A stretch of 64,000 nt of DNA from Deltaproteobacteria bacterium (GTDB lineage Bacteria; Desulfobacterota; GWC2-55-46), in NCBI GenBank assembly GCA_016177845.1, contig JACOUO010000014.1, positions 187,005-251,004 of the forward strand. Direction: 5' to 3'. Positions 43,497 through 63,194 of this stretch are shown in pieces (within the stretch, counting starts at the first letter, position 1; each line of letters opens with the position of its first letter). Position numbers and translations under genes: made by a program. A model generated the notes under the pieces. The model saw nothing but the letters and a program-made list of their open reading frames with translations, was not told where the DNA came from and searched no databases.

Positions 43497-44366
43497 ATGA
43501 GTATGAAATCTGAATCCATTACAATTAATTCTTTTAATGAATATATTGACATTGTTAATCGGTCAATGGGGAATATTTGTTTATTCCGGGGGCAAGTAGA
43601 AGATTTAGAATTACTTCCAAAAATAGCAAGACCTGAATGTATCGGTCTTTTTCAAAACCAAAGATTTATAGAGTCTTGGAAAAAAACAATTCCGGCTTTG
43701 CCGTCTAAAGATCTAAGTAACTTATTAAATGACGAAGAGCTTCCGATAACTAAACCAACTAAAGAAATGAAAAAATATCAGAAAGATTTTCTGTTATTTG
43801 AAATGAAAATGTTTTCAGAATTCTGCAGAGCATCAATTCCATATTTAAATGGTAAAATACCAAATGGTAAGTGGGAATGGCTCACATTAGCACAACACCA
43901 TGGTTTGCCAACTCGATTATTAGATTGGACGAAAAACCCCTTAATAGCATTATGGTTTGCAGTGCAGGACTCTTCAAAAATGTCTGAAGCTGAACAAAAA
44001 AGGTCTTCAACTTATGGTGTTGTTTGGCAATTCAATCCCAAAAATTCAGATTTTTTAAACACGTTGAAAGATAAAACTCCATTTTCATTAAAAAGAACAA
44101 AAATTTTTGAGCCAAATCATATATCACAGAGAATTGTCGCTCAATCCGCTTGTTTTACAGCACATAAATACTTAAATGATCGTGGTTTTATTTCTCTTAT
44201 TAGAAACAAATTCTATAAAGATAGATTATTTAAAATTATTATACCTTATAATAGATTTCCTATTTTAAAAAAGAGCCTTTCACATTTCGGCATAAATTCT
44301 GCTACACTTTTCGCCGATTTAGACAATCTTTGTAGAAATATTATTGAAGTGTACACTCCTGAATAG
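43497..44366 (+). CDS. FRG-domain protein, in an AT-rich island
   Basis: Contains the FRG-domain pattern GNICLFRGQ...LLP plus downstream WEWLTLAQHHGLPTRLLDWT (the Phe-Arg-Gly motif region). Local GC is about 32-35% versus ~48% in the flanks. Confidence 0.7.
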   Translation: MSMKSESITINSFNEYIDIVNRSMGNICLFRGQVEDLELLPKIARPECIGLFQNQRFIESWKKTIPALPSKDLSNLLNDEELPITKPTKEMKKYQKDFLLFEMKMFSEFCRASIPYLNGKIPNGKWEWLTLAQHHGLPTRLLDWTKNPLIALWFAVQDSSKMSEAEQKRSSTYGVVWQFNPKNSDFLNTLKDKTPFSLKRTKIFEPNHISQRIVAQSACFTAHKYLNDRGFISLIRNKFYKDRLFKIIIPYNRFPILKKSLSHFGINSATLFADLDNLCRNIIEVYTPE

Positions 44367-44374
44367 CCTCTAAT

Positions 44375-44620
44375 CTAATCTTTTTGCGAACTGGGTTCGC
44401 TCCTCGGGGTATTGGCTCCCGGCTACCGAGTTCGTTCTCTAATCAAGCCGTCATTCCCGACTGTCTCTATCGGGAATCGAGTATTGTAGTATTTTAGTAT
44501 TGTAGAGTGGGCTGTGCCACCAAATGTTCTTATAAAAGAGCGTTGTTGCTAAAAACAAGACAGAATACAAAATATTTCCCTCCTTTATCGGGATGATAAA
44601 GGGAAGGGTGAAAAGTGAAA
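44375..44620. repeat. mosaic intergenic repeat block
   Basis: Module B (44385-44440), module A (44440-44480), a module-D-like palindrome (44500-44520) and module E (44575-44615). Confidence 0.8.
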
Positions 44621-44640: not shown

Positions 44641-44676
44641 ATAAAAAAAGGGCAGACAGCTTTCGCTGTCTGCCCT
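44641..44676 (-). terminator. rho-independent terminator at the 3' end of the cytochrome locus
   Basis: On the minus strand: GGGCAGACAGCgaaaGCTGTCTGCCC followed by tttttttat. Confidence 0.75.
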
Positions 44677-44690
44677 TTAAACGGTTCAAG

Positions 44691-45548
44691 TTATTTTGAT
44701 ATGGTCTTTACTTCCGCTTTTGTCTTATCCGCTGCCTTTTCATCCTTCGGCTCCTCTATCTTGGGAGCAGGCTGTGAATGGCATCTGAAGCAGTCATCGA
44801 GCGGGAAGGCCACTTTAACATGGCATGTTCCGCAGTACTGGCCTGAGATAATCTTTATCATGTTCATCTCAGGGTTCCCGCCCTTCTGCTGCTTGAATAT
44901 GGAGGTGTGACAGGTCTCACAGTTCATCTGCTCTGTGTGCGCTTTATGGGGGAAGAGCACATCAGGCGGATGTGGCGTGAACTTTGTAACAGGGATAACT
45001 ACATCCATATCAAGGGCGTCAAGCGTTCCTTTGCCATCAGGCGAGGCCGCAGGTTTTATCTTACCTTCCCTTACAGCCTTTACCCAGTCGACCTTGTTGC
45101 CGAAGTGGTCTTTTGGAAGGTCCTTTAAGGAATCGTCAATATTGCTGTTCCCGGCGTTCTGCGCTCCGTATGAGTGGCAGCGTTTGCAGTTGCTGACAGG
45201 GAATGATGTTGTGCCGTTATGGCATGATCCGCAGTATTTGCCTGATTCTATATCAGCCTGTGTAACCCCGGTGGCATTTGGCTTCATCGCGAAGCCAAGG
45301 TCAGTATGGCAGGCCTTGCAGGTGTATTTGGCCCTGTGTGCCCAATGAGGAAAGAGCACAGGCTCAATTGTTTTTGAACTTCTGGTGTTTTTATCCATCA
45401 GCACAGTACCATGTGAGCCGGGCGCCTTGACTTTTTTCAGGTCAGTTTCCCATGTATTACCCTGCGCGTTTACTCCCTGGTAAAAGAAAAGGCCTGTGAC
45501 AAAGGCCGTTGATAATATGGCCAGACGCTTGAAAATTTTACTACGCAC
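44691..45548 (-). CDS. hexaheme c-type cytochrome: two tandem triheme cytochrome c7-like domains, membrane-anchored
   Basis: Six CxxCH motifs (CKACH, CGSCH, CKRCH, CETCH, CGTCH, CFRCH). Two c7-type FPHxAH motifs (LFPHWAHRAKYTCKACH, LFPHKAHTEQMNCETCH). GTG start at 45548 with a GGAGG RBS. An in-frame ATG at 45626 would overlap the upstream gene. Confidence 0.8.
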   Translation of the reverse strand: MRSKIFKRLAILSTAFVTGLFFYQGVNAQGNTWETDLKKVKAPGSHGTVLMDKNTRSSKTIEPVLFPHWAHRAKYTCKACHTDLGFAMKPNATGVTQADIESGKYCGSCHNGTTSFPVSNCKRCHSYGAQNAGNSNIDDSLKDLPKDHFGNKVDWVKAVREGKIKPAASPDGKGTLDALDMDVVIPVTKFTPHPPDVLFPHKAHTEQMNCETCHTSIFKQQKGGNPEMNMIKIISGQYCGTCHVKVAFPLDDCFRCHSQPAPKIEEPKDEKAADKTKAEVKTISK

Positions 45549-45598
45549 TTTAGACCTCCGTTTTAAAACTGACTTCAATTGACTCAATTGCTTTATTA

Positions 45599-46072
45599 TT
45601 AATAGCCGACATGGCATGAGGCGCATAATCTGAGGTAATCCACCCTTAACATCTTGGGATATCTGGACTTGTTGTGCGGGTCATGGCATGTATAGCAGAC
45701 CATCTCTCCGTCATCGGTTAAAGGCAGTTTAGCCGGAATTTTAATCTTGGGCATCTTGCCGATAGGATGCCTGGTAACCGGATGATTGGTCATATTCCCC
45801 GGATGGCATTTGGCGCATGTCGTAACCGGGTCAAAGCTGAGCCTCGGGGGCTCGCTCCCATGGCAGACTGAACAGGTGCTGTCATCATAATAGTTATGAG
45901 GATTGGCGCTTACCTGTCCCTCTTCTTCGGAATAAGCTGTTCCCGGATTTGTGATTCCGAGAACGGGCAAAAAGATAAGAAGTGCAAGAATAAGAATCGG
46001 GTTTATCAGGGCGCCTCTCCAATGGAACCGTTTTTTAAAAATTCTTTTACCTGAGGATTTATTCGGGTCCAT
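45599..46072 (-). CDS. tetraheme c-type cytochrome, N-terminal membrane anchor
   Basis: Four CxxCH motifs (CSVCH, CAKCH, CYTCHDPHN, CASCH) and a TM helix at residues ~20-40. Confidence 0.8.
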   Translation of the reverse strand: MDPNKSSGKRIFKKRFHWRGALINPILILALLIFLPVLGITNPGTAYSEEEGQVSANPHNYYDDSTCSVCHGSEPPRLSFDPVTTCAKCHPGNMTNHPVTRHPIGKMPKIKIPAKLPLTDDGEMVCYTCHDPHNKSRYPKMLRVDYLRLCASCHVGY

Positions 46073-46174
46073 GTCTTTATGCCGTCTTAAGTTTCAGGAA
46101 GTTTTTTAAGCTAAACTCCCGATTTTTTGAATTTGCCCGAAAAAAGTACGGGCGCCCCTTCTGACAGAGCGGTA

Positions 46175-48397
46175 CTAATTTGCGCAGGTCGAAACCGTAT
46201 TGCAGTTGTAAGTTGCCGTAACTCCGATAAAGTTTGTGAAGTTATAATTGCAGACCTTATCTGTGGCCGGTGTCACGGACCTGAAGTTCATCTCTACGCC
46301 CGTAGATGTAGTGGCCCGCTTGTGTGATTCCACGCAAGCGCCGTTCATGAGCCTGTAGCCGAGCGGGTCAGAGCCCGCAAGCGCGCCTGCAGCGGCATTG
46401 CTTCCGTGAACGCCCTTCATGACATTATTTATAGAGTCATAGCTTCCGCCATGGCATGAGAGGCAGAGTATGCCGAATTTGTTGCTGTTATTGCCTGTGT
46501 TGGACCCTGCGGTATAGAAAGGCGAACTTGTGCCAAGCCCGTCAACAGGGTGCGGAACCCTTGAGAAGTTGGCGTTCGGGCCGACATAGCCTTCATCTCC
46601 GTAGACATCTCTTCTGTGGCAGTTATAGCAGAAGTTGACAAGCGAGCCTGAGCCGGTCTGGTTCTTGTTAAGTATCCACTTCTGGTCTGAACCATGCGCG
46701 CCTTTAGGGTCGGCTGTAACGCTTGAAGAATGGCAGTCAGTGCAGGTCGAGGTGCTGTCATGCGTTACATTGAAGAACCCTGTCCTCTGGCCGACACCCG
46801 GGAAGTCAACATACCTGAATGTATTTGTCAGTCCAAGGTTATTTGCAGGCCAGTTCGGATTTGCCGATACGAAAGGCTGGTTCTTGCCCTGCGCGAACAC
46901 GGGGTGGTAGCTCATGTTATTTACATTGAAGTCCGCCGTCGGGTCTGACTGCAGGACGAGCGAACCGTCCGCATTGCCTGAGGGCACGCTCGGGTTTGTA
47001 ACGCCATAAGAATAGTAGGAATGGCACTTTATGCAGAGATAACCTTCAAGGTTATCTGAGCCGGGTGTCAATGAATTGAAATCCGTTACCGTGTATGTAA
47101 GCGCCTGATTGCCTGCTGAAGGCCATGCAGAGGGCTTCACGCCCCAGCTTCCGAGCACATTCGGAGCTATGATGTTGCCATTGACGCCGCCTATGGTATG
47201 GTTGCCGGATTTTGTGGCGTGTGAGTTATGGCAATCCGCGCACTCTGCGTGCCTGTTATTGCCGAGGTTTGCCGCTGACTCCCTCGCGGGCTCGCCCGGG
47301 CTCTGCCTTGAGGCTATATGAGAGCCGTAGGTGCCTTTTATATTATGTTTGTATAAATAGCTGAACTGAGGCTCCACATCTTTTGATGTTACATTCCCGT
47401 TATGGCAGTTAAGACAGGTCCATTCCTCATCAACTGTCTGCGATGTGGCGGGGTTTATCCCTTTGAGAAGGGATTTCCCTGCTGTGCCGTTATGAGAGCG
47501 ATGGCACGCAAGGCAGCTCTGCATCTGAGGCGTATCATCTGAAAAGCCTGCTGAGCCCATGTCTTCATGCCATGGGTTTACGCCATTGCCGTTCCATGTT
47601 GCCGTAGATGTTTTATGGATTGACGGATTTGTCTCCCAGAATCTCTTTTCATGGCAGTTAAGACAGAGCACGCCGCTTTCAAGCGAGCTTACCATGAATT
47701 TGGGATAAGCTGTCCCGTGCGGGTCATGGCAGCTGGTGCACTGTATCCTTCCTGAGCTGTCAACCTTTACATTGGGCGGAAGCAGTGTGTCGGATTTTAT
47801 TTCCGGGTTTGACGGATATGCCAATGAATATTCAAATGATATAGGGTGGTCATCCTTTAAGTCCGTTCCTATGTAAGAAGTCGAGGCCGAAGTAAGCTTG
47901 CCTGCAGTGACTCCGGTGCCTGTGACAGAAAAAGTGCCTGCCAGTGTTTTACCCGGCTGATTTAGGAGTGAGCCAAGGGCGATTGTGCCGTCATGGCATG
48001 AGAGGCAAAGTTTTGATGAACCCGTGGGCTGGCCCAATGTAGGAGAGTTCGGGCTTAATGTGGCAGCCAGTGTCTGGCTTTCATATACATTATAGGTGGC
48101 TCCGGTATCCTGCTTGTTCCAGACAGGGCCTGAAGGTGCGGCATTGTGCGGTGTATGGCAGAATACGCATACTTCAGAGGTCTCTGTTGTCTTTACCGCA
48201 GCCGTAGAAAGGCTTCCGAGGTTATGCTTGGTGCCGGAAACGCTCGCCCAGAGCTGGGTGGAGGTAAATGCAATTGTAAGGCCGGCTGCCGAGACTGCCA
48301 GAGCGGCTGCCAGATGTCGTTTTGAGCAGGTACGCCTCGCAGATAAAAAAGCCTCCTTTAATTCAGAAAGGGAAGAAGGTAATTTTTTCTTTTTCAT
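46175..48397 (-). CDS. large (≥11-heme) Ser/Thr/Gly/Asn-rich multiheme c-type cytochrome, probably extracytoplasmic or cell-surface
   Basis: Eleven CxxCH motifs, many with a CxxCHxxHN extension. Low-complexity S/T/G/N-rich composition. Signal-anchor AALAVSAAGLTIAFTS. The start is taken as the ATG at 48397 (MKKKKLP). The ORF extends to a TTG at 48445. Confidence 0.8.
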   Translation of the reverse strand: MKKKKLPSSLSELKEAFLSARRTCSKRHLAAALAVSAAGLTIAFTSTQLWASVSGTKHNLGSLSTAAVKTTETSEVCVFCHTPHNAAPSGPVWNKQDTGATYNVYESQTLAATLSPNSPTLGQPTGSSKLCLSCHDGTIALGSLLNQPGKTLAGTFSVTGTGVTAGKLTSASTSYIGTDLKDDHPISFEYSLAYPSNPEIKSDTLLPPNVKVDSSGRIQCTSCHDPHGTAYPKFMVSSLESGVLCLNCHEKRFWETNPSIHKTSTATWNGNGVNPWHEDMGSAGFSDDTPQMQSCLACHRSHNGTAGKSLLKGINPATSQTVDEEWTCLNCHNGNVTSKDVEPQFSYLYKHNIKGTYGSHIASRQSPGEPARESAANLGNNRHAECADCHNSHATKSGNHTIGGVNGNIIAPNVLGSWGVKPSAWPSAGNQALTYTVTDFNSLTPGSDNLEGYLCIKCHSYYSYGVTNPSVPSGNADGSLVLQSDPTADFNVNNMSYHPVFAQGKNQPFVSANPNWPANNLGLTNTFRYVDFPGVGQRTGFFNVTHDSTSTCTDCHSSSVTADPKGAHGSDQKWILNKNQTGSGSLVNFCYNCHRRDVYGDEGYVGPNANFSRVPHPVDGLGTSSPFYTAGSNTGNNSNKFGILCLSCHGGSYDSINNVMKGVHGSNAAAGALAGSDPLGYRLMNGACVESHKRATTSTGVEMNFRSVTPATDKVCNYNFTNFIGVTATYNCNTVSTCAN

Positions 48398-48441
48398 CTT
48401 AGCACCATCCGCTGCGGCCGTATTTTTCCTGCTGGGCAATA

Positions 48442-49545
48442 TCAATTCCCGTGATATTCAAAAACCTGAACCCTTTTGTTGTAAGAATCAGCTACATAAA
48501 CTTTATCTGCGCTGTCAATATATATGCCGGAAGGGCTCCAGAACTTTCCTGCCTCCCTGCCTACTGAGCCGAAATTCAGAAGGAAATTCCCGCTCCTGTC
48601 AAATATCTGCACTGTATCAAATATGGCATCAACAATATAAATATTCCCGTCATGGTCAACGGCAACACCCTTTGGCCTGCCTAAATCGCCTGTACCGTCG
48701 CCGTGCTTGCCTATTTTAGAGACGAATTTGCCATCCTTATCGAATATCTGTATCCTGAAATTCATTGTGTCAGTAACATAGAGCTCGTTTTTATTGTCGA
48801 TGAAGAGGTCGACCGGGTAGTTGAGCTCTCCATCTTTATCGCCCAATTTGCCAATCGTATTTACGAGGCCGCCTTTCAGGTCGTATACCCCTATATTATG
48901 CGAGCCTGTATCTGACACATAAAGGAGCTTATCCTGCCTGTTAATGGCAATTCCCGTCATCCTCTTGCCCTCGCCGATACTGCGAAGGTACTGGCCCTTC
49001 GGGCTGAAGACCAGGATCTTATTAAGGACAGAGTCCGTTATATAGATATTGTCTTCGCCGTCAACAGCCGCGGAGATAGGGGATTCGAGATACCGGTTAT
49101 CGTCAAGTTCGTCTATATAGCTGTATTTGCCGTTCTTGGCGTCGTATATGTGCACCCTTTTAAAAGCGGTATCGGCAACGATTATCCTTCCGGTGGAATC
49201 CGTTACAACTCCATAGGGTTTAATTATATCCTCAGATTTTGAACCGAGGACAAATTCTGCGAGTTTCTTGAAAAAGCCTTTATTCGCGCCTATGTCCGAG
49301 GGATTCGCTATTGTCGTTGAATAAGAGATCCTTGCCGGTTCCGGAGGGGACGGCCATATTATCGGCTTTGCCGCTAATTGCCGGTCTTCTTTTATGGGCT
49401 GAGAGCCGCAACCTGAAAATGAGAATAGAAATGCGCAAAGCGCAAGTCCCATGGACAAAGATGCGATGGCGCCTTTTTGAGAATTTTTTGCCGTATTCAC
49501 CTTTTGATTTCCAGACAGAGCTTTTTGCGGCTCAAGTGTGCTCAT
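48442..49545 (-). CDS. NHL-repeat six-bladed beta-propeller lipoprotein
   Basis: Lipobox FSFSGCGS. Six repeats of the NHL pattern (e.g. YVTDTMNFRIQIFDKDGKF, GVAVDHDGNIYIVDAIFDTVQIFD). Confidence 0.8.
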   Translation of the reverse strand: MSTLEPQKALSGNQKVNTAKNSQKGAIASLSMGLALCAFLFSFSGCGSQPIKEDRQLAAKPIIWPSPPEPARISYSTTIANPSDIGANKGFFKKLAEFVLGSKSEDIIKPYGVVTDSTGRIIVADTAFKRVHIYDAKNGKYSYIDELDDNRYLESPISAAVDGEDNIYITDSVLNKILVFSPKGQYLRSIGEGKRMTGIAINRQDKLLYVSDTGSHNIGVYDLKGGLVNTIGKLGDKDGELNYPVDLFIDNKNELYVTDTMNFRIQIFDKDGKFVSKIGKHGDGTGDLGRPKGVAVDHDGNIYIVDAIFDTVQIFDRSGNFLLNFGSVGREAGKFWSPSGIYIDSADKVYVADSYNKRVQVFEYHGN

Positions 49546-49561
49546 TCAATCGCCTCTAAAA

Positions 49562-50173
49562 TTATTTCCTGTGGCAATACTGGCAGATATCCAGGCCCGC
49601 TGAGCGGAGCCGCATCGTAAAATCCGCGCCCCAGTCAGCCCTGCCTGTAAGGAGCCCTCTTTCATGAGGGTTATGGCAGGTGGCGCAGATGATCTTGCCT
49701 GATTTAGGGTCAAGCGGAAGTATTGTGGGTACATCTTTAAGAGAGATCCGCATGTTGGTGGCGATTGCGGATGAGGGGACCACGAGGTGGTCAGGAGCTG
49801 CATAGCCGCTCATCGTAACGCTTGCGCCCTCTGTTCCGGGATGCTTTTTGACAAGATGGCATCTCGTGCAGATCTCGTTCGGGTTGTCCTCGAAATGGAG
49901 CTGGACATCTTTAATGGAATGCTCTTTTTTAATATCTGGTATCTGCTTATGGCAGACCGTGCAGGTGCCCCAGAGTATCTCGCCCGCATCGTTAATCTGT
50001 TCGTGAGGGTTTATGATTGTGCCGAGGGCCTCTCCTCTTTCATAGGGAGGGGTGGTCTCTTTCGGGGGTTCCGGCGCCTTTTGCGCTGAAAATGAGACCC
50101 CGGCCATGAATATAAAAGCTCCCGCCAGAATGGCAGGTTTTAAGTACTTTCCGAAATTTCTGTGCATATTCAT
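49562..50173 (-). CDS. tetraheme c-type cytochrome, secreted; paralogue of 45599..46072
   Basis: Four CxxCH motifs (CTVCH, CTRCH, CATCHNPHE, CQYCH) and a signal peptide. Confidence 0.8.
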   Translation of the reverse strand: MNMHRNFGKYLKPAILAGAFIFMAGVSFSAQKAPEPPKETTPPYERGEALGTIINPHEQINDAGEILWGTCTVCHKQIPDIKKEHSIKDVQLHFEDNPNEICTRCHLVKKHPGTEGASVTMSGYAAPDHLVVPSSAIATNMRISLKDVPTILPLDPKSGKIICATCHNPHERGLLTGRADWGADFTMRLRSAGLDICQYCHRK

Positions 50174-50210
50174 ACCTTTTTTTGCGGTGCTTGTTTAGTT
50201 CCCTTTTGTG

Positions 50211-51347
50211 TTACTTCGTGAATGAATAAATGCCGCCGTCTTCAGAGGTTATATATACCGCATTTTCAAAAACAACGGGTGAGGAATGTACGCCGCCGTT
50301 GGTTTGATACTTCCATGCCACTTCGCCTGCCTTCAGGTCTACCGCGTAAAGATAGCCGTCCTCACAGCCTACATAGAGGAGGCCGTTGCCGGAGACCGCC
50401 GGTGTGGAGTTTATTTCGGCAGGGAATTTATAATCAGCCGATTCTGTACCGTTTGCCTTATTGAATACCTTGATATGTCCGTTCTTAAACGCCATGTAGA
50501 GCTTGTCTTTGGTAATAACCGGGGAAGCATAGGCAATCTCGTTGTCCATGTTCTTTCTCCAGACAAATTTGCCGGTCTTTGCGTCCAGAGCGTATATAGA
50601 CCTGTCATATGAGGACACATAAATGATCCCGTCTTTTATGGCAGGGGATGAGTAGATGGCAGATTGAGTTCTTTTTGACCAGTTCCTTCCGCCGCTTTTG
50701 GCTGAAACCGAATATATCAGCCCGTTTTTGCCTGCGCCATAGATGGAGCCGTCCGAATAAGCCGGAGTGGCGTAAATGCCGCTGTATTTTTCGTAATCAG
50801 GCATCTTCATTCTCCAGGCGCGTTTGCCTGTTGAGAGATCTATGGCGTAGAGGTAGAGGTCTGATGAGCCGGCATATACCATGCCTTCGGCTACAAGCAG
50901 TGATGTCTGTACGGCGCCACCGGTATTGTGCTTCCATACGAGCTTTCCGGTTGCTGCCTCAACAGCATAGATGTTGCCGTCTTTTGAGCCGACAAGGACC
51001 TTATCTTCAAATACAGCCGGAGTCGAGACGATCTCTGCTTGCGTGGGGAAGCTCCAGAGCATATTCCCGGTTGCCGCGTCGATGGCATAGAGGTTTTTGT
51101 CATATGATGCCGCGTAAACGGTATTGTTGTTTACAACGGGGGAGGCGAATATGGCGCCTTTTGCCATGAACTTCCATTTAAGGGTAAGGGGAGGTACTGG
51201 GGCCTTTTCAGTATAAGATGAATGGGCCGGGGTTTTTAAGAACATTGGCCAGCTGTCGGCTTTTGCCTCAGCTGAAAAAAGGCCAAGGCCCAGTGAAAGG
51301 GCCAGTATGGTTATACTTTTTTGTATTGGGAATTTCTTAGGCTGCAT
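50211..51347 (-). CDS. PQQ-repeat (BamB-like) eight-bladed beta-propeller protein, secreted
   Basis: Signal peptide. Repeated A.Dg/a.TGk..W motifs (LYAIDAATGNMLWSF, IYAVEAATGKLVWKH, LYAIDLSTGKRAWRM, IYALDAKTGKFVWRK, LYAVDLKAGEVAWKY). Confidence 0.8.
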   Translation of the reverse strand: MQPKKFPIQKSITILALSLGLGLFSAEAKADSWPMFLKTPAHSSYTEKAPVPPLTLKWKFMAKGAIFASPVVNNNTVYAASYDKNLYAIDAATGNMLWSFPTQAEIVSTPAVFEDKVLVGSKDGNIYAVEAATGKLVWKHNTGGAVQTSLLVAEGMVYAGSSDLYLYAIDLSTGKRAWRMKMPDYEKYSGIYATPAYSDGSIYGAGKNGLIYSVSAKSGGRNWSKRTQSAIYSSPAIKDGIIYVSSYDRSIYALDAKTGKFVWRKNMDNEIAYASPVITKDKLYMAFKNGHIKVFNKANGTESADYKFPAEINSTPAVSGNGLLYVGCEDGYLYAVDLKAGEVAWKYQTNGGVHSSPVVFENAVYITSEDGGIYSFTK

Positions 51348-51360
51348 AGTTTCACCAGTT

Positions 51361-51963
51361 TTAAACCTTGAATTTTGAAAACTCCTGCGTAACCTCTCTC
51401 CTTACATTTGAGATCTGGCGGAGAACATCCGACAGTTCTGCTTTGGAAGGGGTCTTGTCAGAAGCCATGATGTTGTTGAGAGCCGTTATTTTCTCGTCTA
51501 TTACATTTGCAGACCTCTTAACTGAACGGAAACTTGCCCCAAGCGAGCCCAGCATTCCGTTAAAGACTTCAGGCAGGTCAATAGGCATTTTAATGGATAC
51601 TCTTTGAGTGAAATCCCCTTGAGCAGTTTTCCTGAGCGCCTCTCTGAAGCTCATCAGGGGAAGCTCGATGCGACGAGTAAGGTAATACCCTATAATGGCC
51701 GAGACCGCAATGATCGACGGTATGGTGATAGCGCTTAGTTTCCATATGATAGGAGCGGCTATCTCGGTAGTCGTCCTTATCTTAAGATGGATTCTATATA
51801 ACTCCGCTGAAAGTTCCCTGTCAATTAAAAAATATACGAAAAACAGGTTGAGCGCGAAGCCGAGCAGGACCGCTAAAGTAAAGCCCAGCACGAAATGCAA
51901 CTGTAGTCTTTTCTTTACGAAAAAATTGCGCCTTCTGTACTTTGGACGGGAATTTCTGCTCAT
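51361..51963 (-). CDS. small membrane protein: 2 TM + HAMP domain, no output domain
   Basis: TM1 at ~31-53, TM2 at ~93-112, then the HAMP pattern (LREALRKTAQGDFTQRVSIKMP...). 200 aa. Confidence 0.65.
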   Translation of the reverse strand: MSRNSRPKYRRRNFFVKKRLQLHFVLGFTLAVLLGFALNLFFVYFLIDRELSAELYRIHLKIRTTTEIAAPIIWKLSAITIPSIIAVSAIIGYYLTRRIELPLMSFREALRKTAQGDFTQRVSIKMPIDLPEVFNGMLGSLGASFRSVKRSANVIDEKITALNNIMASDKTPSKAELSDVLRQISNVRREVTQEFSKFKV

Positions 51964-52120
51964 ATGCGCCTATAAACTATCATAATTGAGGAGAATATTC
52001 AACCCGCTCAGATTTTAATACATCCATATTAAACCAGTATTAAAGCGGAATTAAGAGTTTAAAAAGCCTGTAACCGACAGAATATTATATCGGCAATACC
52101 GGAGCCGCCTTAAGTCCAAA

Positions 52121-52960
52121 TTATTTTACATGGCAGGCAAGGCACAAGGCGCTGCCTTCATTGCTTATGACAAGATCGAAATGCTGCTTGGAGTAAGGGT
52201 TATGACAGCTTCCGCAGCCTACGCCGCCGCCGAAGAGCTTTATCTGTGAAGGGAGTTCTTCAACCCTTCTGTAGGCGCCTTTATATTTACGCTTTGCCTC
52301 CAGATAGGAGACCCCTATTGGATGGCTTACGCCTATCTGGTTAGCGTCATGGAAAACGACATTGTCTACCCGCGTATCGGATGCTGATACCGCATCATGG
52401 CAGGAGAGGCATTTTATTGAAAGCTCATCAAGCACATTGCCAAGCTCCCATGCCACAAATTTAGAGCTGGTAGATGTAACTACATGGGCCGTGCCCATGG
52501 AGACCTTGTGCAAGTCATTTTCAAGGTCATTGTGGCATAACATGCAAAAACCCTGTCCGCCTGCGCTTGATCTTAAGTGGTACGCGCCCTTGCCCGGGTT
52601 ATGCGCCGGGTGGCAGGATATACAGGTCAGGTCGCCTTTCCAGTTAAGCGGGAAGCTTGCCGGAACCTGCATGGAAGGGTTTATATCAACAGGATGGGAC
52701 AGTTCCTTCTGGCTCGAATGGCACTCGTAGCACATGAAAGATATATCTTTTTTAAATGCGCGGGGAGTCTCACCCGGCTGCGGCACTGTCAGGTGGCAAT
52801 CAAGGCACTTCCCCTCGAAATCATGGTAGCTCTCCCATTGGGAAGATACCAGTTTTCCGATAAGCAGGAGCGATATGAAGGCGGCTATGATAATAAAAGT
52901 GTTTTTTTTCACAAATCTATTCTTTGACTTTGATGCCTGAGGTGGCCCTTTTAAGTTCAT
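52121..52960 (-). CDS. heptaheme c-type cytochrome, membrane-anchored
   Basis: Seven CxxCH motifs (CLDCH, CYECH, CISCHPAHN, CMLCH, CLSCH, CGSCHNPY, CLACH) and an N-terminal signal-anchor. An alternative GTG start at 52912 lies immediately after the upstream stop. Confidence 0.8.
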   Translation of the reverse strand: MNLKGPPQASKSKNRFVKKNTFIIIAAFISLLLIGKLVSSQWESYHDFEGKCLDCHLTVPQPGETPRAFKKDISFMCYECHSSQKELSHPVDINPSMQVPASFPLNWKGDLTCISCHPAHNPGKGAYHLRSSAGGQGFCMLCHNDLENDLHKVSMGTAHVVTSTSSKFVAWELGNVLDELSIKCLSCHDAVSASDTRVDNVVFHDANQIGVSHPIGVSYLEAKRKYKGAYRRVEELPSQIKLFGGGVGCGSCHNPYSKQHFDLVISNEGSALCLACHVK

Positions 52961-53513
52961 TGAGCCCCATTTTTAAATCCGCTATGGCCTCTTTCAGGTC
53001 ATGGTCAGAGGGATTATCCTGCTTAAGCAGCACTGCAAGCCGTTCTTCAAATTTTTCGATATCCGACAGCGCATCACCGCAGCTTCTTACATTATGGTTC
53101 AGGTCGCGGACCATTTTATTTATATCATCTGCAAGGGCTACAAGCTGATCCTCTCCCCTGAACCTTGTATCTACAGTGAGGTCGCCGGAGCCTATCAATT
53201 TAAGGTTTTCTTCAATGCGGTATATGGGACCGGCAATTTTATGCGAGAACAGAACGGATATCGTAATGATGGCCGCCGTAATAAGCGCAAGCAGGGCTGT
53301 TGAGTAGAATGAGGCAAAGATAAGCGGAAATATCCTGATCTTCAGGTCATATATATTATAGATGGCCTGCCCGTACGAGCCGCCGAGCGTCCTTGCTGTC
53401 ATTAAATACAGAAATAGCGTTATGCCCAGCATGCCAGCGATTACAAAAAGGCAAAACCTTATTCCATATTTTAATTTAAAGGCTCTTTGCACAAGTCCCG
53501 AGTCTTTTGCCAT
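52917..53513 (-). CDS. small membrane protein: 2 TM + HAMP domain, paralogue of 51361..51963
   Basis: TM1 at ~20-42, TM2 at ~63-88, then HAMP (IGSGDLTVDTRFRGEDQLVALADDINKMVRDL). 198 aa. Confidence 0.65.
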   Translation of the reverse strand: MAKDSGLVQRAFKLKYGIRFCLFVIAGMLGITLFLYLMTARTLGGSYGQAIYNIYDLKIRIFPLIFASFYSTALLALITAAIITISVLFSHKIAGPIYRIEENLKLIGSGDLTVDTRFRGEDQLVALADDINKMVRDLNHNVRSCGDALSDIEKFEERLAVLLKQDNPSDHDLKEAIADLKMGLNELKRATSGIKVKE

Positions 53514-53739
53514 AGTTATCTCTCGCTGCCTGAGTCAAAGCGGTTTGGGTTATTTGTGTCTGAAATTGTTAAAAAAAACGGTGAGGAGGATTTTCTGGGT
53601 GCTGCAAAAGGGGTACTTAAAATCTTAAACAGGAATGTATTCATTTATTCATCCGTATTGGGGAACTTACTGTGTAAGAAAGTTTTTGTATTATATCGTA
53701 AAAAGATTTTTTTGTGAAGATTATTAAATGGATGCGAAA

Positions 53740-54620
53740 TCTGTTTAACTTCCTCCCTTAATGGGACGGGATAAATGAGAGAGGGAGAAAAATATTGCAG
53801 GGTGGGCTGTGACCACAGAATCTAATCTCAAAAGGTGTTTGTGCTGATTTACTTTTACGCCGGGCTTTAACTCTTCGGGGTATTGGCTCCGTTAGCTGTC
53901 GAGTCCGTTCGCTAATAAATACGAATGCCCGCTCTCTCCCTCTCCCCTGATCAAGCCGTCATTCCCGAATGTCTCTATCGGGAATCTACTTTTAAAATAC
54001 TGGATTCCCGCTTTCGCGGGAATGACAATTACTAAAACCTGTCATCGTGGGCAGGGCAAAGCAATCTGTTTGTCCCCCTCACCCCCAACCCTCTCCCACA
54101 AGGGGAGAGCTGGGAGCGACGCGAGAAGGCAATCGTTAATATTTTGTCTTTATAAAACCCCGAGGGCGTTAATGGTGCGTAAGGGAGGAAGGGTGAGCGA
54201 GCCGAGGCTGCGGGAGCGTAAGCGACCTAAGAAATGAACCGAGCGGATTGGGGAGGAGCGGGGTTGCGCATCCATTCGCCCGAAAGAGCCCGGCAGGGCG
54301 TTAAAGTTAAAACATCACAGAACTTCAAAAAAATGAGACTTGCAGTAAAGCGTTGTTGTTTATTAACTTTTGCGAACAGCGGGTTCGCTCCTCGCGGCAT
54401 TGGACTCCGTTAGCTGTCGAGTCCGTTCGCTAATAAATACCAATGCCCGCTCTCTCCCTCTCCTTTCCTTTATGCTCTCTGCGCAATGCCCCTTGGTGTG
54501 GTGTTTTAAAAACAAGACAGAACAAACAGAATCTGTCATTGCGAGCAAAGTGAAGCAATCTGTTTTTCATTTAGTATCCCCCTCCCTTGATTGCAAGGAG
54601 ATAAAGGATATGGGTGAGCT
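53740..54620. repeat. mosaic intergenic repeat block
   Basis: Module E-like (53745-53790), module D-like (53800-53820), module B (53858-53940 and 54365-54450), module A pair (53942-54030), module C (54160-54320) and module F (54470-54525). Confidence 0.85.
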
Positions 54621-54832
54621 GAATGCAAAACACCCTTTTACCTTTCAACTCCCCCTTTTTGAAATACCTTGAAAAAAAACGCCGTTATAAATATAATGAA
54701 ATGCTTGATTTACCTGTTGATGGTGCGTCTCGCGCCTGTTGCGGGGTTTTTAAGAAGTAAAGATACACGGATTGCATCCGATATAAGATAAGTTTTTGAG
54801 AGCAAATATTTGAAGGACGAGAGGAGAGGTTT

Positions 54833-55867
54833 ATGGCAAATGAGACATTTTTAAAGGCGTGCCGCAGGGAGCAGACCGACTATACCCCAGTGTGGCTCAT
54901 GAGGCAGGCAGGCCGTTACATGAAGGAATACATGGCAATAAGGGAGAAGCATTCTTTTATAGAGATGTGCAAGAAGCCTGAGATAGCCTGTGAAGTTACC
55001 CTGCAGCCCGTCAAGGCTTTTGAGCTTGACGCCGCCATTATCTTTGCCGACATCCTCCTTCCGCTTGAAGGCATGGGTATCAACTTCGAGTTCGCAAAGA
55101 ACGAAGGCCCTGTAATCAGAAATCCCGTTAGGAACAGAAAAGACATAGACGCAGTAAAGGTCATCAATCCTGAAGCTGATGTGCCGTATCTCCTTGAAGC
55201 CATAAAGCTTGTCAAAAAAGAGCTTAACGGCAAGGTGCCCCTTATCGGCTTTTCAGGCGCGCCGTTCACGCTGGCAAGCTACATCATCGAGGGCGAGGGC
55301 TCACGCAACTACATCAACACCAAAAAGCTCATGTACACAGACCCTGAGGGCTGGAAGATACTCATGGACAAGATAGCCGATGTAGTTATCGTCTATCTCC
55401 AGGCGCAGGCAAAGGCTGGCGCGCAGGTCCTGCAGCTCTTTGACAGCTGGGTCGGCTGCTTAGGCCCCGATGACTTCAGGGAATATGCTCTGCCCTATAC
55501 AAAAAGGGTTATCGATACCATCAAAAAGACAACGGATGTGCCTGTTATCAACTTCGGCACAAATACCGGCACATACTTAAATCTTGTAAAACAGGGCGGC
55601 GGCGATGTCATCGGCGTTGACTGGAAGGTCAGGCTCGATGAAGCATGGAAGACTATCGGCTATGAACACTCCATTCAGGGAAACCTTGACCCTGTAGTCC
55701 TCTTCAGCAATCCTGCTACCATCAGGAAGAGGGTAAAGGAAATAATCGACATGGCAGAAGGCAGGCCCGGACATATCTTCAACCTCGGCCACGGCATCAT
55801 CCTTGGCACGCCGGTTGATAATGTAAGGGCGGTTATCGACAGCGTGCACGAGTTCTCAAAAAGATAA
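54833..55867 (+). CDS. hemE: uroporphyrinogen decarboxylase
   Basis: N-terminal PVWLMRQAGRYMPEY-type signature (here PVWLMRQAGRYMKEY) and a full-length 344-aa URO-D fold. Confidence 0.9.
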   Translation: MANETFLKACRREQTDYTPVWLMRQAGRYMKEYMAIREKHSFIEMCKKPEIACEVTLQPVKAFELDAAIIFADILLPLEGMGINFEFAKNEGPVIRNPVRNRKDIDAVKVINPEADVPYLLEAIKLVKKELNGKVPLIGFSGAPFTLASYIIEGEGSRNYINTKKLMYTDPEGWKILMDKIADVVIVYLQAQAKAGAQVLQLFDSWVGCLGPDDFREYALPYTKRVIDTIKKTTDVPVINFGTNTGTYLNLVKQGGGDVIGVDWKVRLDEAWKTIGYEHSIQGNLDPVVLFSNPATIRKRVKEIIDMAEGRPGHIFNLGHGIILGTPVDNVRAVIDSVHEFSKR

Positions 55868-55935
55868 ATTTTAAGCAAACCCTTCCTGGCCTTGCCTCGG
55901 AAGGTTTCACACATAAATAAAATTCGAGGTTAAAG

Positions 55936-56859
55936 ATGACTTCTACTCCAAAAGGTGTTCTGCTCCTTGCTTTCGGCGGGGCTGACTCCATTGAAAGCGT
56001 CGAGCCCTTTGTAAAAAATGTGCTTAAGGGCAGGCCCGTTACCCCTGAGCTTATTGAAAAGACCAAAGAACGGTATAAGCTCATCGGCGGCAAATCGCCT
56101 CTTCTTGGTTTGACGATTGAGCAGGGCAAGGCCATTGAGAAGCTCATGAACAAGGACGGAGGCAATTATAAAGTTTATGTCGGGATGCGCTACTGGCACC
56201 CGTTCATCAAAGAGACCTTAAGCCAGATGAAGGCAGACGGCATAAAAGAGGCTGTTGCGGCCATCATGGCCCCGTTCACATCCCTTGTCGCCACAGGCGG
56301 ATACGAAAAGGATGTAGAGAGCGCGCTTGCGGAGCTGGATGGCGAGCCCAAGGTAGAGTTCATCCCCCGTTGGAACATGAAGCCCCTTTTTCTTGATGCC
56401 GTAGCTGAGAAGCTGGCTGAGCAGTTAAAGTATTTTGACGACCCTAATGACGCGCTTGTCATATTCAGCAATCACAGTCTTCCCCTGGGCGCGCTTGAAG
56501 GCGACCCTTACGAGATGATAATCAACCAGAGCGCCAATGAGATTGCCAAAAAATTCGGCAAGCTGGACTACAAGGTGTCTTACCAGAGCAGGGGCGCAGG
56601 CCCGCGCGAATGGCTTGGCCCGCAGACAGAGGACATAATCCAGCAGGCAAAGAAAAAAGGCAAAAAAGGCGTCATCATAGTTCCGCTTGGTTTTGTAGCT
56701 GACCATGTCGAAACTCTCTACGATATAGACATCCTCTTTAAAGGCATGGCAGAGCAGCAGGGACTTGAATTCAGAAGGACCGCTTCATTAAATGATTCGC
56801 CCAAGCTCATGGAACTGATGGCCGACCTTCTCGTTAAACTGGCTGAAAAAAGACAATGA
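55936..56859 (+). CDS. hemH: ferrochelatase (likely coproporphyrin ferrochelatase, given the hemE-hemH-hemY order)
   Basis: Ferrochelatase N-terminus (GVLLLAFGGADSIESVEPFVKNVL) and a 307-aa length. ATGA overlap with the downstream hemY. Confidence 0.85.
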   Translation: MTSTPKGVLLLAFGGADSIESVEPFVKNVLKGRPVTPELIEKTKERYKLIGGKSPLLGLTIEQGKAIEKLMNKDGGNYKVYVGMRYWHPFIKETLSQMKADGIKEAVAAIMAPFTSLVATGGYEKDVESALAELDGEPKVEFIPRWNMKPLFLDAVAEKLAEQLKYFDDPNDALVIFSNHSLPLGALEGDPYEMIINQSANEIAKKFGKLDYKVSYQSRGAGPREWLGPQTEDIIQQAKKKGKKGVIIVPLGFVADHVETLYDIDILFKGMAEQQGLEFRRTASLNDSPKLMELMADLLVKLAEKRQ

Positions 56860-58286
56860 AAAAAGTGGTAATAATAGGGGGCGGCATAGCAGGACTTGCC
56901 GCCGCTTACAGCTTAAGAGAACACCAGACCCCAGACACGCCTGATTTCGAGATTATCCTTCTTGAAAAGAATAACAGGCTTGGCGGGAACATCCGCACGG
57001 AAAAGACAGACGGCTTCCTTATAGAAGGCGGGCCGGACTGCTTCATTTCAGAAAAACCCTGGGCAATGGAGCTGTGCAAGAGGATCGGCCTCGGGGATAA
57101 GATACTCCCTACAAATGAGGGCGGAAAGACCTATGTGCTTTCAGGCGGAAAGCTGCACATCCTTCCTGACGGCGTTATTTTGATGGTACCAACCAAGATG
57201 CTCCCGCTTGCCACAAGCACCCTTATCTCATGGGCCGGCAAGATAAGAATGGCCTCCGAGATATTCGTGCCAAAGAAAAAAGGCAGGGAAGATGAGACCC
57301 TTGGCCAGTTCGTAAGGAGAAGGCTTGGGCAGGAAGCCCTTGATAAGATAGCCGAGCCGCTTGTGGCCGGAGTCCATGCCGGAGACCCTGAGACCATGTC
57401 TGTCAGGGCGAGCTTCCCTAAGTTCGTCCAGCTTGAGGAGGAGTACGGAAGCCTCATCAAAGGCATGATAAAGAGGATGGAACTCCTTAAAAAGACACAT
57501 AAGCCTCAAGCCTCAGCAGGGCCTAAGAAAAAGGTCACGATGTTCATGACCCTCAAAGACGGCCTCTCTGAAATGATAGATACGCTGACAACCATTCTCT
57601 TAAAAACAAATACCCGCATTGAAAAGGGTGTGGCAGTTACAGGCGTCACAAAAAAGAACAACGGTTATGAAGTCGCTCTCGATGGGGGCAAGTCAATTGA
57701 GGCTGACGCTGTAGTTATTGCCGCGCCTGCTTATGCCGCGGCAAATGTGCTCAGCAGGTTTGACGCTGACCTGTCACAGAAGCTCCTTACAATCCCGTAT
57801 GTCTCAACGGCTACCGTTTCGATTGCCTTTAAAAAGAGCGATGTGAAACATCCGTTGAACGGCTTTGGTTTTGTTGTGCCGAAGATAGAAAAAAGAAGGA
57901 TAATGGCTGCCACATGGACTTCGCGCAAGTTCAGCTTCCGCGCCCCTGATGATACTGTTTTAATCAGGTGCTTTGTTGGCGGCTCAAAGAATATGGAGCT
58001 TGTGAACCTGAGTGACCCTGAAATGATAAAGATGGTCAAGGAAGAACTCAGGGATACGATGGGCATAACCGCCGAGCCTGTCCTTGTCAAGGTCTTCAGG
58101 TGGATAAACTCCATGCCGCAATACACTGTTGGCCATGAGGACAGGATTAAATGGATTGAGGAGAGGCTCGCAAATCATCCGGGGCTTTACCTTACAGGCA
58201 GCGCTTACCACGGCATCGGCATCAGCGACAGCATCCGCATAGGCGAGGTAGTCGCAAAGAAGATTCTCCATCAGTTAAAAAATTAA
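56856..58286 (+). CDS. hemY: protoporphyrinogen/coproporphyrinogen III oxidase (HemY/CgoX family)
   Basis: FAD dinucleotide-binding motif VVIIGGGIAGLAAAY, a 476-aa length, and the HemY-family C-terminal region. Confidence 0.85.
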   Translation: MKKVVIIGGGIAGLAAAYSLREHQTPDTPDFEIILLEKNNRLGGNIRTEKTDGFLIEGGPDCFISEKPWAMELCKRIGLGDKILPTNEGGKTYVLSGGKLHILPDGVILMVPTKMLPLATSTLISWAGKIRMASEIFVPKKKGREDETLGQFVRRRLGQEALDKIAEPLVAGVHAGDPETMSVRASFPKFVQLEEEYGSLIKGMIKRMELLKKTHKPQASAGPKKKVTMFMTLKDGLSEMIDTLTTILLKTNTRIEKGVAVTGVTKKNNGYEVALDGGKSIEADAVVIAAPAYAAANVLSRFDADLSQKLLTIPYVSTATVSIAFKKSDVKHPLNGFGFVVPKIEKRRIMAATWTSRKFSFRAPDDTVLIRCFVGGSKNMELVNLSDPEMIKMVKEELRDTMGITAEPVLVKVFRWINSMPQYTVGHEDRIKWIEERLANHPGLYLTGSAYHGIGISDSIRIGEVVAKKILHQLKN

Positions 58287-60702: not shown

Positions 60703-61177
60703 AAGTATGGCGCAAAGGAGAGGCCTGGTGGTCTTTGTGTAACTTTCGGTCCCTTCGTTCCTAAAATAAAAAAGGCCAGCTTGATAGGATTCAACTGTTT
60801 CATTCTAGGGGGAGAAGTCCATACCTGTCAATTTCTCCTCGCTCTCAACGAATTTTGTCAATGAAAGTTTCAACGTACTGACCGTACCTCTAAAGTGATG
60901 AAAGAAGTTCAGGGGCGTTGTACGTCCAACGCGCCCCTTCGAAGTCCACGAGCCGTGATTTTGTGATATAATTCGAGCAAGTTTGAGCCTCGACAGCTTG
61001 CCATCCAACAAGACTGATTTACTCACCGCGCTTTCTTTCATCCCGAAAGACAAGCATCTTCTCCGAAAAAAGCAAGGCCTTCAAGTAAATATTTTAAACG
61101 TCTAAACTGGTCGAAAAAATGCCATTTCTTAATGGTTGTTTTTCGATTGTCAGACAGTCTATGATGGAGGTGCGCAT

Positions 61178-62434: not shown

Positions 62435-63194
62435 GAAACTAAGGGTTCTTGTCGTGGATGACGACCGGAGAATGGTCAGGACGATCTTCGATATCCTTAT
62501 GAACAAAGGATACGAGGCGGTGTCCGTCCATACCGGCGAGGACGCGGTGGAAAAGGTCAGAAAGGAAAAATTTGATTGTGTCCTAATGGACATCAGGATG
62601 CCGGGCATAAGCGGCATTGAGGCATGCGGAAGGATTCATGAATTGTCGCCGAACCTTCCGGTGATCCTGGCAAGCGCCTACGCTACGGAAGAGATGGAGG
62701 CTGAAGCAAGAAAATACGGTGCATATGCTGTAATGATCAAGCCGCTCGACCTTCAGAGAGTTCTTTCATTTCTTTCATTGCTCATGAATGAGGAGAGCAT
62801 ACTCATTGTGGACGACGACACCAGGTTTTCCATGACGCTAAAAGATATCCTCAAAGCGAGGGGATACAGAGTGCAAACCGAAAGCAACCCGGAAAAGGTA
62901 CTCGGCCATATGGAGCAAAATTACAAATTGGTGGTGCTTCTTGACTTGAAGCTCGGAGACGCCGACGGGCTCGACGTCCTGAAGGAACTGCGGGCTAAAT
63001 ATCCTTCAAAGCCGGTGGTGCTGGTGACAGGCTATAGGGAAGAGATGGCTGGTTCGATCCAAAAGGGGCTTCAGATAGGCGCCTACACCTGTTTGTATAA
63101 GCCTCTTGAGATCGAGAAGCTTTTGGAATTGATCAGGGACGTCAGCAGAAGGAAAGTAGCGGAGATCCTTGGCGAGGAGTTTGAAAAGCTGTGA
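62421..63194 (+). CDS. response regulator with two tandem receiver domains
   Basis: AAGGAGGG RBS. REC1 (LRVLVVDDD...DCVLMDIRMPG) and REC2 (ILIVDDDTRF...LVVLLDLKLGD). No output domain. Confidence 0.8.
   Translation: MVNSKKLRVLVVDDDRRMVRTIFDILMNKGYEAVSVHTGEDAVEKVRKEKFDCVLMDIRMPGISGIEACGRIHELSPNLPVILASAYATEEMEAEARKYGAYAVMIKPLDLQRVLSFLSLLMNEESILIVDDDTRFSMTLKDILKARGYRVQTESNPEKVLGHMEQNYKLVVLLDLKLGDADGLDVLKELRAKYPSKPVVLVTGYREEMAGSIQKGLQIGAYTCLYKPLEIEKLLELIRDVSRRKVAEILGEEFEKL

Follow-up and report, generated by a model that had tools for sequence, protein, structure and literature searches.

A 32-haem gene locus as the probable cytochrome-rich half of a two-locus OmcE/Uet-type electron transfer system in a groundwater deltaproteobacterium

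Nine minus-strand open reading frames (ORFs) lie head-to-tail at positions 44691-53513 of a 64-kb stretch of DNA (positions 1-64,000, hereafter the window) that belongs to a metagenome-assembled genome (MAG) of a groundwater "Deltaproteobacteria" (Thermodesulfobacteriota) organism. Labelled g1 to g9 in transcription order, these genes encode five multihaem cytochromes, two β-propellers and two small membrane proteins. An initial annotation of this DNA, all nine of whose co-directional ORFs were confirmed, had read them as an undescribed electron conduit in which the propellers take the place of a porin. Our analysis leads to a different picture. The locus is probably the cytochrome-rich half of a two-locus extracellular electron transfer (EET) system of the OmcE/Uet type, which would lay a haem wire across the cell envelope. 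Since a large outer-membrane β-barrel is encoded elsewhere in the same genome, the locus reads as a variant of a known system and not as a porin-free conduit. The assignment to EET made by the initial annotation is upheld, but it is carried by the homology of the g7 N-terminus to OmcE, by the likeness of g9 to GSU1996 and by conserved genomic context, not by c7 polymers alone. The result for the window is mainly corrective in that the locus emerges as an ordinary member of an emerging class rather than as a new kind of conduit, and the points of wider interest concern the family more than the window itself.

The cytochrome signal of the locus is far above chance. A recount of CxxCH motifs in the five cytochromes gave the same total of 32 that had been annotated (seven in g2, four in g5, 11 in g7, four in g8 and six in g9), where about 0.01 would be expected in the roughly 2,850 residues, as estimated from typical Cys and His frequencies. 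The variant haem motifs CxxCK and CxnCH do not occur among the sequences of the nine proteins.

The undecahaem cytochrome, its NHL partner and the outer-membrane barrel

The undecahaem cytochrome g7 (46175..48445, minus strand) is a protein of 756 aa, or 740 aa from NCBI's ATG start, and is identical to HYS21_09450 of the groundwater MAG. Its description as a giant, S/T/G/N-rich cytochrome with 11 haems proved correct, with these four residues making up 38% of the sequence. It starts with a signal peptide, which is followed by a tetrahaem module homologous to OmcE (residues 52-267) and by an extension with the other seven haems. Over its whole length the module can be aligned with the nanowire subunit OmcE (PDB 7TFS, E 6.5e-25), g7 also matches the D. 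soudanensis OmcE (9YUQ, E 4.4e-20), and its OmcE match reaches E 1.9e-37 when a family profile is used. The alignment with OmcE extends over the signal peptide and each of the four CxxCH motifs, and includes four distal His residues, among them those of the motifs TKHNL, CHTPH and DDHP. Additionally, residues 60-270 of g7 resemble residues 271-480 (hhalign 95.6%), and the protein looks as though it may have been built from fused OmcE-like units. There are more than 100 homologues of g7 at 45-75% identity in related MAGs. A scan of a genome collection further provided a conserved-context sample of 80 loci from more than 12 phyla (numbered with the prefix L). Exactly 11 CxxCH motifs are present in 72 of the 80 g7 homologues, and the family alignment contains 12 invariant His residues that are not part of these motifs.

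The gene that overlaps the start of g7 by 4 bp, g6 (48442..49545, minus strand), encodes an NHL six-blade β-propeller lipoprotein, as had been annotated (PF01436, 110 bits; lipobox-like FSGC). A lipobox is found in 43 of 74 orthologous NHL partners of the undecahaem cytochrome. In at least 65 of the 80 loci the g7 homologue is immediately preceded by an NHL gene, and the loci that apparently lack one are mostly contig ends or over-extended ORF calls. Together g6 and g7 are the conserved core pair of these loci and are usually encoded beside a large outer-membrane β-barrel.

The barrel family was defined by iterative profile searches over the ORFs of the 80 loci. Its members are haem-free, polar-rich proteins of about 560-760 aa that typically end in R-x-F/W, with an aromatic last residue. 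They are found in 64 of the 80 loci, mostly directly upstream of the pair of NHL and undecahaem (c11) genes, and the recurrent gene order among the loci is OmcE-like tetrahaem (c4), NHL, c5, barrel, NHL, c11. An AlphaFold2 model of one member, P0134 from the HY884 MAG, consists of a signal helix and 32 β-strands (pLDDT 75), and the top Foldseek matches of this model are all outer-membrane barrels, for example LptD, TonB-dependent receptors and FimD. Iterative profiles were needed as a tblastn search with the barrel of locus L084 against the window and all loci gave almost no matches. Two members of the sample are cultured isolates usable for genetics, namely Desulforhopalus sp. IMCC35007 (L024, 4267-11800), with the canonical order c4-NHL-c4-barrel-NHL-c11, and Motiliproteus sp. 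SC1-56 (L077, 7923-12600), with the Uet-like order c7-c7-NHL-c11.

No ORF of the barrel family is present within 44691-53513, and none of comparable size is present within the window. The initial annotation was thus right that the nine-gene locus encodes no porin; however, a barrel is encoded elsewhere in the same MAG. This protein, HYS21_10745 (P0286, MBI1912461.1), has 659 aa and the C-terminus FVRIW, lies on a separate 238,546-bp contig and is assigned to the same MAG because it shares the locus-tag prefix of g7. Word-indexed searches with barrel profiles, which returned 14 and 3 matches, missed it, and it was found by an exhaustive HMM search and a cluster look-up. Over its full length it is 28-29% identical to the L084 and HY884 barrels. 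The 6.5 kb covered around HYS21_10745 encode an FGE-sulfatase lipoprotein, the barrel, a TPR-like protein of 276 aa and a HEAT protein, in the same order as in sister MAGs. The barrel loci of the sister MAGs also encode an OmcE-like tetrahaem (299-343 aa; 7TFS, E 2.9e-16), an NHL lipoprotein, a c7 trihaem and a SurA-like PPIase, and the second locus of the window genome probably contains the OmcE-like c4, the second NHL protein and the PPIase as well.

In some relatives both halves of the system are adjacent. In L084, whose g7 homologue is 42% identical, the same nine genes are immediately preceded by an FGE-sulfatase gene and that of a 740-aa barrel with the C-terminus SFVRIF. L089, with a g7 homologue of 55% identity, has four FGE-sulfatase genes and then a 634-aa barrel, a gap of 38 bp and the same nine genes in the order HAMP-like protein, heptahaem, HAMP-like protein, propeller, c4, NHL, c11, c4 and c6. 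The HY884 MAG carries the nine genes and the barrel on separate contigs, and a barrel and a g7 homologue are both present in the HY954 MAG.

FGE-sulfatase-family proteins precede the barrel in every case, in one to four copies (L085, 5223-6251 and 8082-8939; L087, 6322-7329 and 9037-9846; L088, 595-1386; L089, 1-2961). Some have lipoprotein-like N-termini, one has two CxxCH motifs, and a spermine-synthase-like membrane protein is often encoded between the FGE-sulfatase genes. These proteins might have a structural role comparable to that of the T9SS protein GldK/PorK, or might modify the cytochromes. The sole match of the barrel profiles in the window is a 384-aa porin (17438-18592, plus strand; Porin_4/Porin_O_P, E 1e-11) located 27 kb from the locus. 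It was rejected as the cognate barrel, the match being read as general porin likeness or profile drift; as a generic porin it indicates a diderm envelope.

Remaining proteins and organisation of the locus

The promoter-proximal part of the locus encodes a heptahaem cytochrome between two paralogous membrane proteins. The cytochrome, g2 (52121..52960, minus strand), has 279 aa, one N-terminal hydrophobic anchor and its first CxxCH motif about 15 residues past this anchor. In an alignment of its family, seven distal His residues are invariant and an SSQW-SYHDF motif is conserved right behind the anchor. The C-terminal 70 aa form a Paired_CXXCH_1 unit that resembles the C-terminus of OmcE (hhalign 98.4%). 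Because the likeness is limited to this unit, g2 as a whole was rejected as OmcE-like, and the idea that all cytochromes of the locus are built from OmcE modules was dropped. The flanking proteins g1 (52917..53513, minus strand; 198 aa), whose gene overlaps g2 by 44 bp, and g3 (51361..51963, minus strand; 200 aa) are 23% identical. Each has two predicted transmembrane helices and a HAMP-like segment, to which g1 adds a C-terminal helical tail. They had been annotated as HAMP-only proteins, for which the support is weaker than claimed, given that the PF00672 score of g1 (18.1 bits) stays below the cut-off of 25 and Pfam gives no match for g3, but seven of the 16 members of the g1/g3 family do match PF00672 (best E 2.2e-7). 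No output domain was found in g1, g3 or any member of this family. The HAMP-like/heptahaem/HAMP-like trio recurs in L021, L031, L082-84 and L089, and in this way also stands beside the NHL-c11 pair in MAGs of an unrelated deltaproteobacterium (L021) and of a member of the Nitrospiraceae (L031), and most of the 80 loci have the NHL-c11-barrel core without it. The trio is a candidate for a new inner-membrane entry point of such systems.

The second propeller, g4 (50211..51347, minus strand), is a secreted PQQ-repeat (BamB-like) protein of 378 aa with a signal peptide, no lipobox Cys and a single Cys in the whole protein. Its annotation as a PQQ-type propeller is borne out by Beta-prop_ACSF4 (276 bits) and PQQ_2 (179 bits), but identity with BamB is not, as it scores 191.9 bits with TIGR03300 against an equivalog cut-off of 285. 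Among the 80 loci, homologues of g4 are confined to those of this lineage and occupy the position that a second NHL propeller has elsewhere. Co-conservation of propellers and cytochromes, which the initial annotation had proposed as a check, is thus strong for the NHL propeller but does not extend to the PQQ-type one. Specific to this lineage are the trio, the use of a PQQ-type propeller where other clusters have another NHL propeller, and the division of the system between two loci.

Three smaller cytochromes complete the set. A secreted tetrahaem of 203 aa, g5 (49562..50173, minus strand), has no match among solved structures in the PDB, and proteobacterial loci have related domains in proteins with 6 to 10 haems that are encoded downstream of c11. 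The tetrahaem g8 (45599..46072, minus strand; 157 aa) has an N-terminal hydrophobic segment, is weakly OmcE-like (9YUQ, E 2e-4) and is the best match to the c5 cytochrome of canonical clusters. The last gene product, g9 (44691..45626, minus strand), is a secreted hexahaem with two c7-type trihaem domains; its annotation as a double cytochrome c7 is supported by TIGR04257 (128 bits in two stretches) and by GSU1996 (3OV0, E 1.9e-38).

From g1 to g9 the spacing between consecutive genes is -44, 157, 13, 37, 16, -4, 102 and -28 bp. A candidate sigma-70-like promoter, proposed from its consensus match (53690..53718, minus strand; TTCACA-17-TATAAT, 11 of 12 consensus positions), sits about 177 bp upstream of g1. 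An intrinsic-terminator-like hairpin (44647..44678, minus strand), with a 14-bp stem containing 8 GC pairs and the T-run TTTTTATTT after it, begins 13 bp past the g9 stop codon; a terminator had been annotated at this end, but its position is 44678-44647 on the minus strand rather than 44641-44676. The mosaic repeat blocks annotated on both flanks are likewise real, though not as borders. They belong to an interspersed repeat with the hairpin core GTCATTCCCGAATGTCTCTATCGGGAATC that has 11 copies in intergenic DNA of the window, at 53514-54832, at 44393-44485 and at nine further intergenic sites, and since the repeat is found across the window, its flanking copies do not delimit the locus. Borders of a mobile element were also considered for these copies and rejected, as relatives without the extra repeats are still syntenic. 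The promoter region is 1.3 kb here versus about 335-365 bp in relatives, and is some 1 kb longer because repeat blocks are tandemly duplicated at 53864-54074 and 54381-54568.

The order of all nine genes is kept in relatives with 55-71% g7 identity, including one with a closed 2.75-Mb chromosome (CP129479.1). These relatives also keep the flanks, with divergent hemE-hemH-hemY genes upstream and a DHH-CBS-polyA-polymerase gene downstream. The locus is thus stably kept in the lineage and does not represent an island. The haem biosynthesis genes hemE, hemH and that of a hemY-like oxidase (54833-58286, plus strand) are divergent from the 32-haem locus, an arrangement kept in L082 and L083, and it is possible that a shared regulatory region could couple haem supply with cytochrome production. 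On the other side, an FRG-domain gene (43497-44366, plus strand) lies between g9 and the DHH-CBS-polyA-polymerase gene in the window genome only, and the g9 homologue directly adjoins the latter in L082, L083 and L086; the FRG-domain gene is probably a small insertion beside repeat copies. Further along are genes for a dCache-HAMP-GAF-GGDEF diguanylate cyclase (58502-60634, plus strand), which is syntenic in L082 and L083 but not in L084 or L089 and possibly has a regulatory link to the locus, and for a histidine kinase whose N-terminal domain resembles that of ethylene receptors (PF25487 ETR1_N, E 3.6e-40) and, after it, a response regulator that has two receiver domains (61136-63194, plus strand).

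Proposed mechanism and competing explanations

In the two-locus system that we favour, the quinone pool would exchange electrons with the membrane-anchored heptahaem g2, which would be held together with g1 and g3 in a five-helix membrane assembly. Electrons would cross the periplasm via g5, g8 and the two c7 domains of g9, and would cross the outer membrane in g7, which may be threaded in the barrel of about 32 strands or docked to it. The propellers, g4 and the lipid-anchored g6, would be periplasmic scaffolds or assembly factors tethered to the outer membrane, and not the element that crosses it. We infer the contacts among these proteins, the coupling to quinones, the placement of g7 and the direction of electron flow; as to the last, the sequence is compatible with either mineral reduction or electron uptake.

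Several observations weigh against this scheme. The heptahaem g2 fails the curated models for NrfH, NapC and DmsE, scoring 22.5 bits with the NrfH model TIGR03153 (cut-off 134) and 41.6 bits with the DmsE/MtrA model TIGR03508 (cut-off 192), and quinol oxidation by g2 is consequently proposed from its topology. An AlphaFold2 model of g7 made from a 30-sequence alignment was unusable (pLDDT 48), so that no structural claim is built on it and insertion of g7 into the barrel is suggested by gene linkage. The connection between the window and its barrel is that of a MAG bin, recognised by a shared locus-tag prefix, and not that of a closed genome, and the cluster look-up found no barrel on the closed relative chromosome CP129479.1. 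Finally, deletion of DFE_0448-0450, DFE_0461-0462 or DFE_0464-0465 in D. ferrophilus, three separate cytochrome gene sets that are likened to the window locus by architecture alone, left Fe(III) oxide reduction unimpaired (PMC9769857).

One alternative refines the two-locus reading and is possible, although we would not expect it. It makes g7 the base of a nanowire. Embedded as an anchor in the outer membrane, g7 would be the template on which a separate OmcE-like tetrahaem, whose gene lies next to that of the barrel, would polymerise, and the window locus would feed a true extracellular filament via the OmcE-like N-terminal module of g7 at the cell surface. The mounting and initiation of OmcE filaments is an open question (bioRxiv 10.1101/2025.10.22.684050). 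Such a role would agree with the end-to-end alignment of the g7 N-terminus with OmcE, including four CxxCH motifs and four distal His residues, with the resemblance of g7 to tandem OmcE-like units, and with canonical clusters that place a stand-alone OmcE-like c4 and a c11 around one barrel, as well as with the OmcE-like tetrahaem of 299-343 aa encoded in sister barrel loci. Yet there is no stand-alone OmcE-like gene in the window, the barrel locus of this MAG is known over 6.5 kb, the docking is without a supporting structural model, and filaments are documented for the OmcE of Geobacter and Desulfuromonas only. A broader proposal, which is speculative and which we consider somewhat doubtful, is that the undecahaem family, comprising g7 and probably UetJ, is both the outer-membrane mount of OmcE nanowires and, in this lineage, a wire plugged into a previously undescribed inner-membrane module, a heptahaem clamped by the HAMP-like proteins. 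Covalently concatenated OmcE-like units would then thread the barrel of about 32 strands, the N-terminal module at the surface would nucleate free OmcE-like subunits, the NHL lipoprotein would be a dedicated chaperone or clamp of the undecahaem, and the HAMP-like heterodimer with the heptahaem would couple the wire to the quinone pool or sense redox state.

The other explanations depart further from the two-locus reading. Redox sensing, in which a g1/g3 heterodimer and g2 would inform the cytoplasm of redox conditions in the periplasm or outside the cell, for example by signalling to the dCache-HAMP-GAF-GGDEF protein, and in which the remaining cytochromes would be a periplasmic electron buffer and not a respiratory conduit, is improbable. 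The heptahaem is flanked by two paralogous two-helix HAMP-like proteins in every case, the GGDEF sensor gene is syntenic in close relatives, and a membrane cytochrome that contacts a sensor has a precedent in TorC-TorS of E. coli. However, g1 and g3 encode no output or partner domain, the GGDEF gene is unlinked in L084 and L089, most loci carry the NHL-c11-barrel core without the trio, and 32 haems are too many for a sensor. There is even less to be said for a conduit that has no porin and uses the two propellers, NHL and PQQ-type, instead of the β-barrel as a scaffold across the outer membrane. It draws on the absence of a barrel-family gene inside the nine-gene locus, the match in the window being the generic 384-aa porin 27 kb away, and on the D. 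ferrophilus clusters, for which no porin is reported (PMC9769857). Against this, a barrel occurs in 64 of the 80 related loci, adjoins the same nine genes upstream in L084 and L089, and is encoded in the window's own MAG, so that this explanation is largely refuted. In addition, β-propellers that are soluble or held by a lipid anchor are not known to have a surface that spans a membrane. A role as a periplasmic redox module for nitrogen oxides or hydroxylamine, which the initial annotation had offered as an alternative, is least probable of all and goes back to a remark there on nirS, its sole support. No nirS is seen among the annotated ORFs of the window, and the locus has no catalytic subunit, HAO-like octahaem, CxxCK or other catalytic haem motif. 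The initial annotation had itself pointed to the missing catalytic subunit, and the Pfam lists for the loci of five close relatives likewise include no enzyme of the molybdopterin, HAO or copper type.

Read as half of a two-locus EET system, the locus touches an open question, namely what holds cytochrome nanowires and undecahaem wires at the outer membrane and connects them across it, and the OmcE module at the undecahaem N-terminus may bear on the mounting of nanowires. The NHL propeller, undecahaem and large barrel constitute a single and very widespread module, present in more than 12 phyla, which can be divided between two loci. As a consequence of such a split, marker-based surveys that use FeGenie-style neighbourhood rules, as well as readers of a single locus, would miscall genomes as "porin-less".

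Comparison with known electron transfer systems

Porin-cytochrome complexes such as MtrCAB, PioAB/MtoAB and the Pcc/Ext complexes of Geobacter follow the same logic as the scheme proposed here, with a periplasm-facing multihaem wire in a large outer-membrane barrel that receives its electrons from cytochromes of the periplasm and a quinol dehydrogenase of the inner membrane. However, neither g7 (43.3 bits) nor g2 (41.6 bits) matches the MtrA/DmsE model TIGR03508 at its cut-off of 192, the barrel of the window lineage has no Pfam match and belongs to a different and larger family, and the Mtr and Pcc systems have no propeller partners. With the NapC/NirT/NrfH proteins, which typically have four or five haems and an N-terminal anchor, g2 shares only its topology, namely an anchor closely followed by the first haem.

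The clusters DFE_0448-0451 and DFE_0461-0465 of D. ferrophilus IS5, which serve as FeGenie markers (PMC7005843), also have cytochromes interleaved with NHL propellers, the comparison being one of architecture only as taken from the papers. Their host is from the same broad group (Desulfobacterota/Thermodesulfobacteriota), but their haem counts and gene order are unlike those of the window locus. The NHL propellers of D. ferrophilus were proposed in 2018 to "stabilize the OMC complex" (PMC5815863), and omcE and Uet clusters that combine propellers with a barrel have likewise been published (bioRxiv 10.1101/2025.10.22.684050, 10.1101/2022.05.06.490989); the claim of an undescribed conduit is therefore not supported.

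The Uet (undecahaem electron transfer) cluster of Ca. Tenderia electrophaga and Gallionella (bioRxiv 10.1101/2022.05.06.490989; PMC10734462) has its 11-haem protein directly after the NHL gene or genes, as in g6-g7. The undecahaem UetJ is preceded by the NHL proteins UetH/I and accompanied by c7 trihaems, a tetrahaem and the very large barrel UetC, which has 28 predicted strands. The same "doubled CXXCH / cytochrome c3 family" annotation is carried by g7 and the UetJ candidates of Gallionella, which are likened by haem count and annotation and not by sequence. The counterpart of the c7-type trihaems is g9, in which two TIGR04257 domains are fused as a hexahaem. In contrast, the UetC barrel, the UetB PPIase and the UetF cupredoxin were not matched among the nine window proteins by Pfam or NCBIfam models, although the PPIase has a counterpart in the SurA-like PPIase of the sister-MAG barrel loci. 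The hosts also differ, those of Uet being electroautotrophic or iron-oxidising proteobacteria and that of the window being a member of an anaerobic Thermodesulfobacteriota lineage.

The omcE cluster of Geobacter and Desulfuromonas (7TFS, 9YUQ; bioRxiv 10.1101/2025.10.22.684050) shares with the window locus the OmcE-type tetrahaem module, which is here the N-terminus of g7. Common to both systems are one or more β-propeller lipoproteins, extra multihaem cytochromes and a large outer-membrane β-barrel, and the gene order that recurs among the 80 loci fits the published cluster. For example, Desulfuromonas sp. BM509 (L081) has the order c5-barrel-NHL-c10/11, in which c10/11, as the last protein, shares 30% identity with g7 over 564 aa and the c5 protein is best matched by g8. 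The two differ in that the omcE cluster has a stand-alone OmcE tetrahaem, which the window locus does not (g5 has no PDB match and g8 a weak one, 9YUQ, E 2e-4), and in that the omcE cluster holds its barrel, whereas the window lineage has a barrel with about 32 predicted strands in a second locus. The window locus in turn adds the HAMP-like/heptahaem/HAMP-like trio and the di-c7 hexahaem, and one of its propellers is PQQ-type and not a lipoprotein. With the DFE clusters likened by architecture only, the omcE and Uet clusters seem to represent a single system in different forms, built around an NHL/undecahaem/barrel core.

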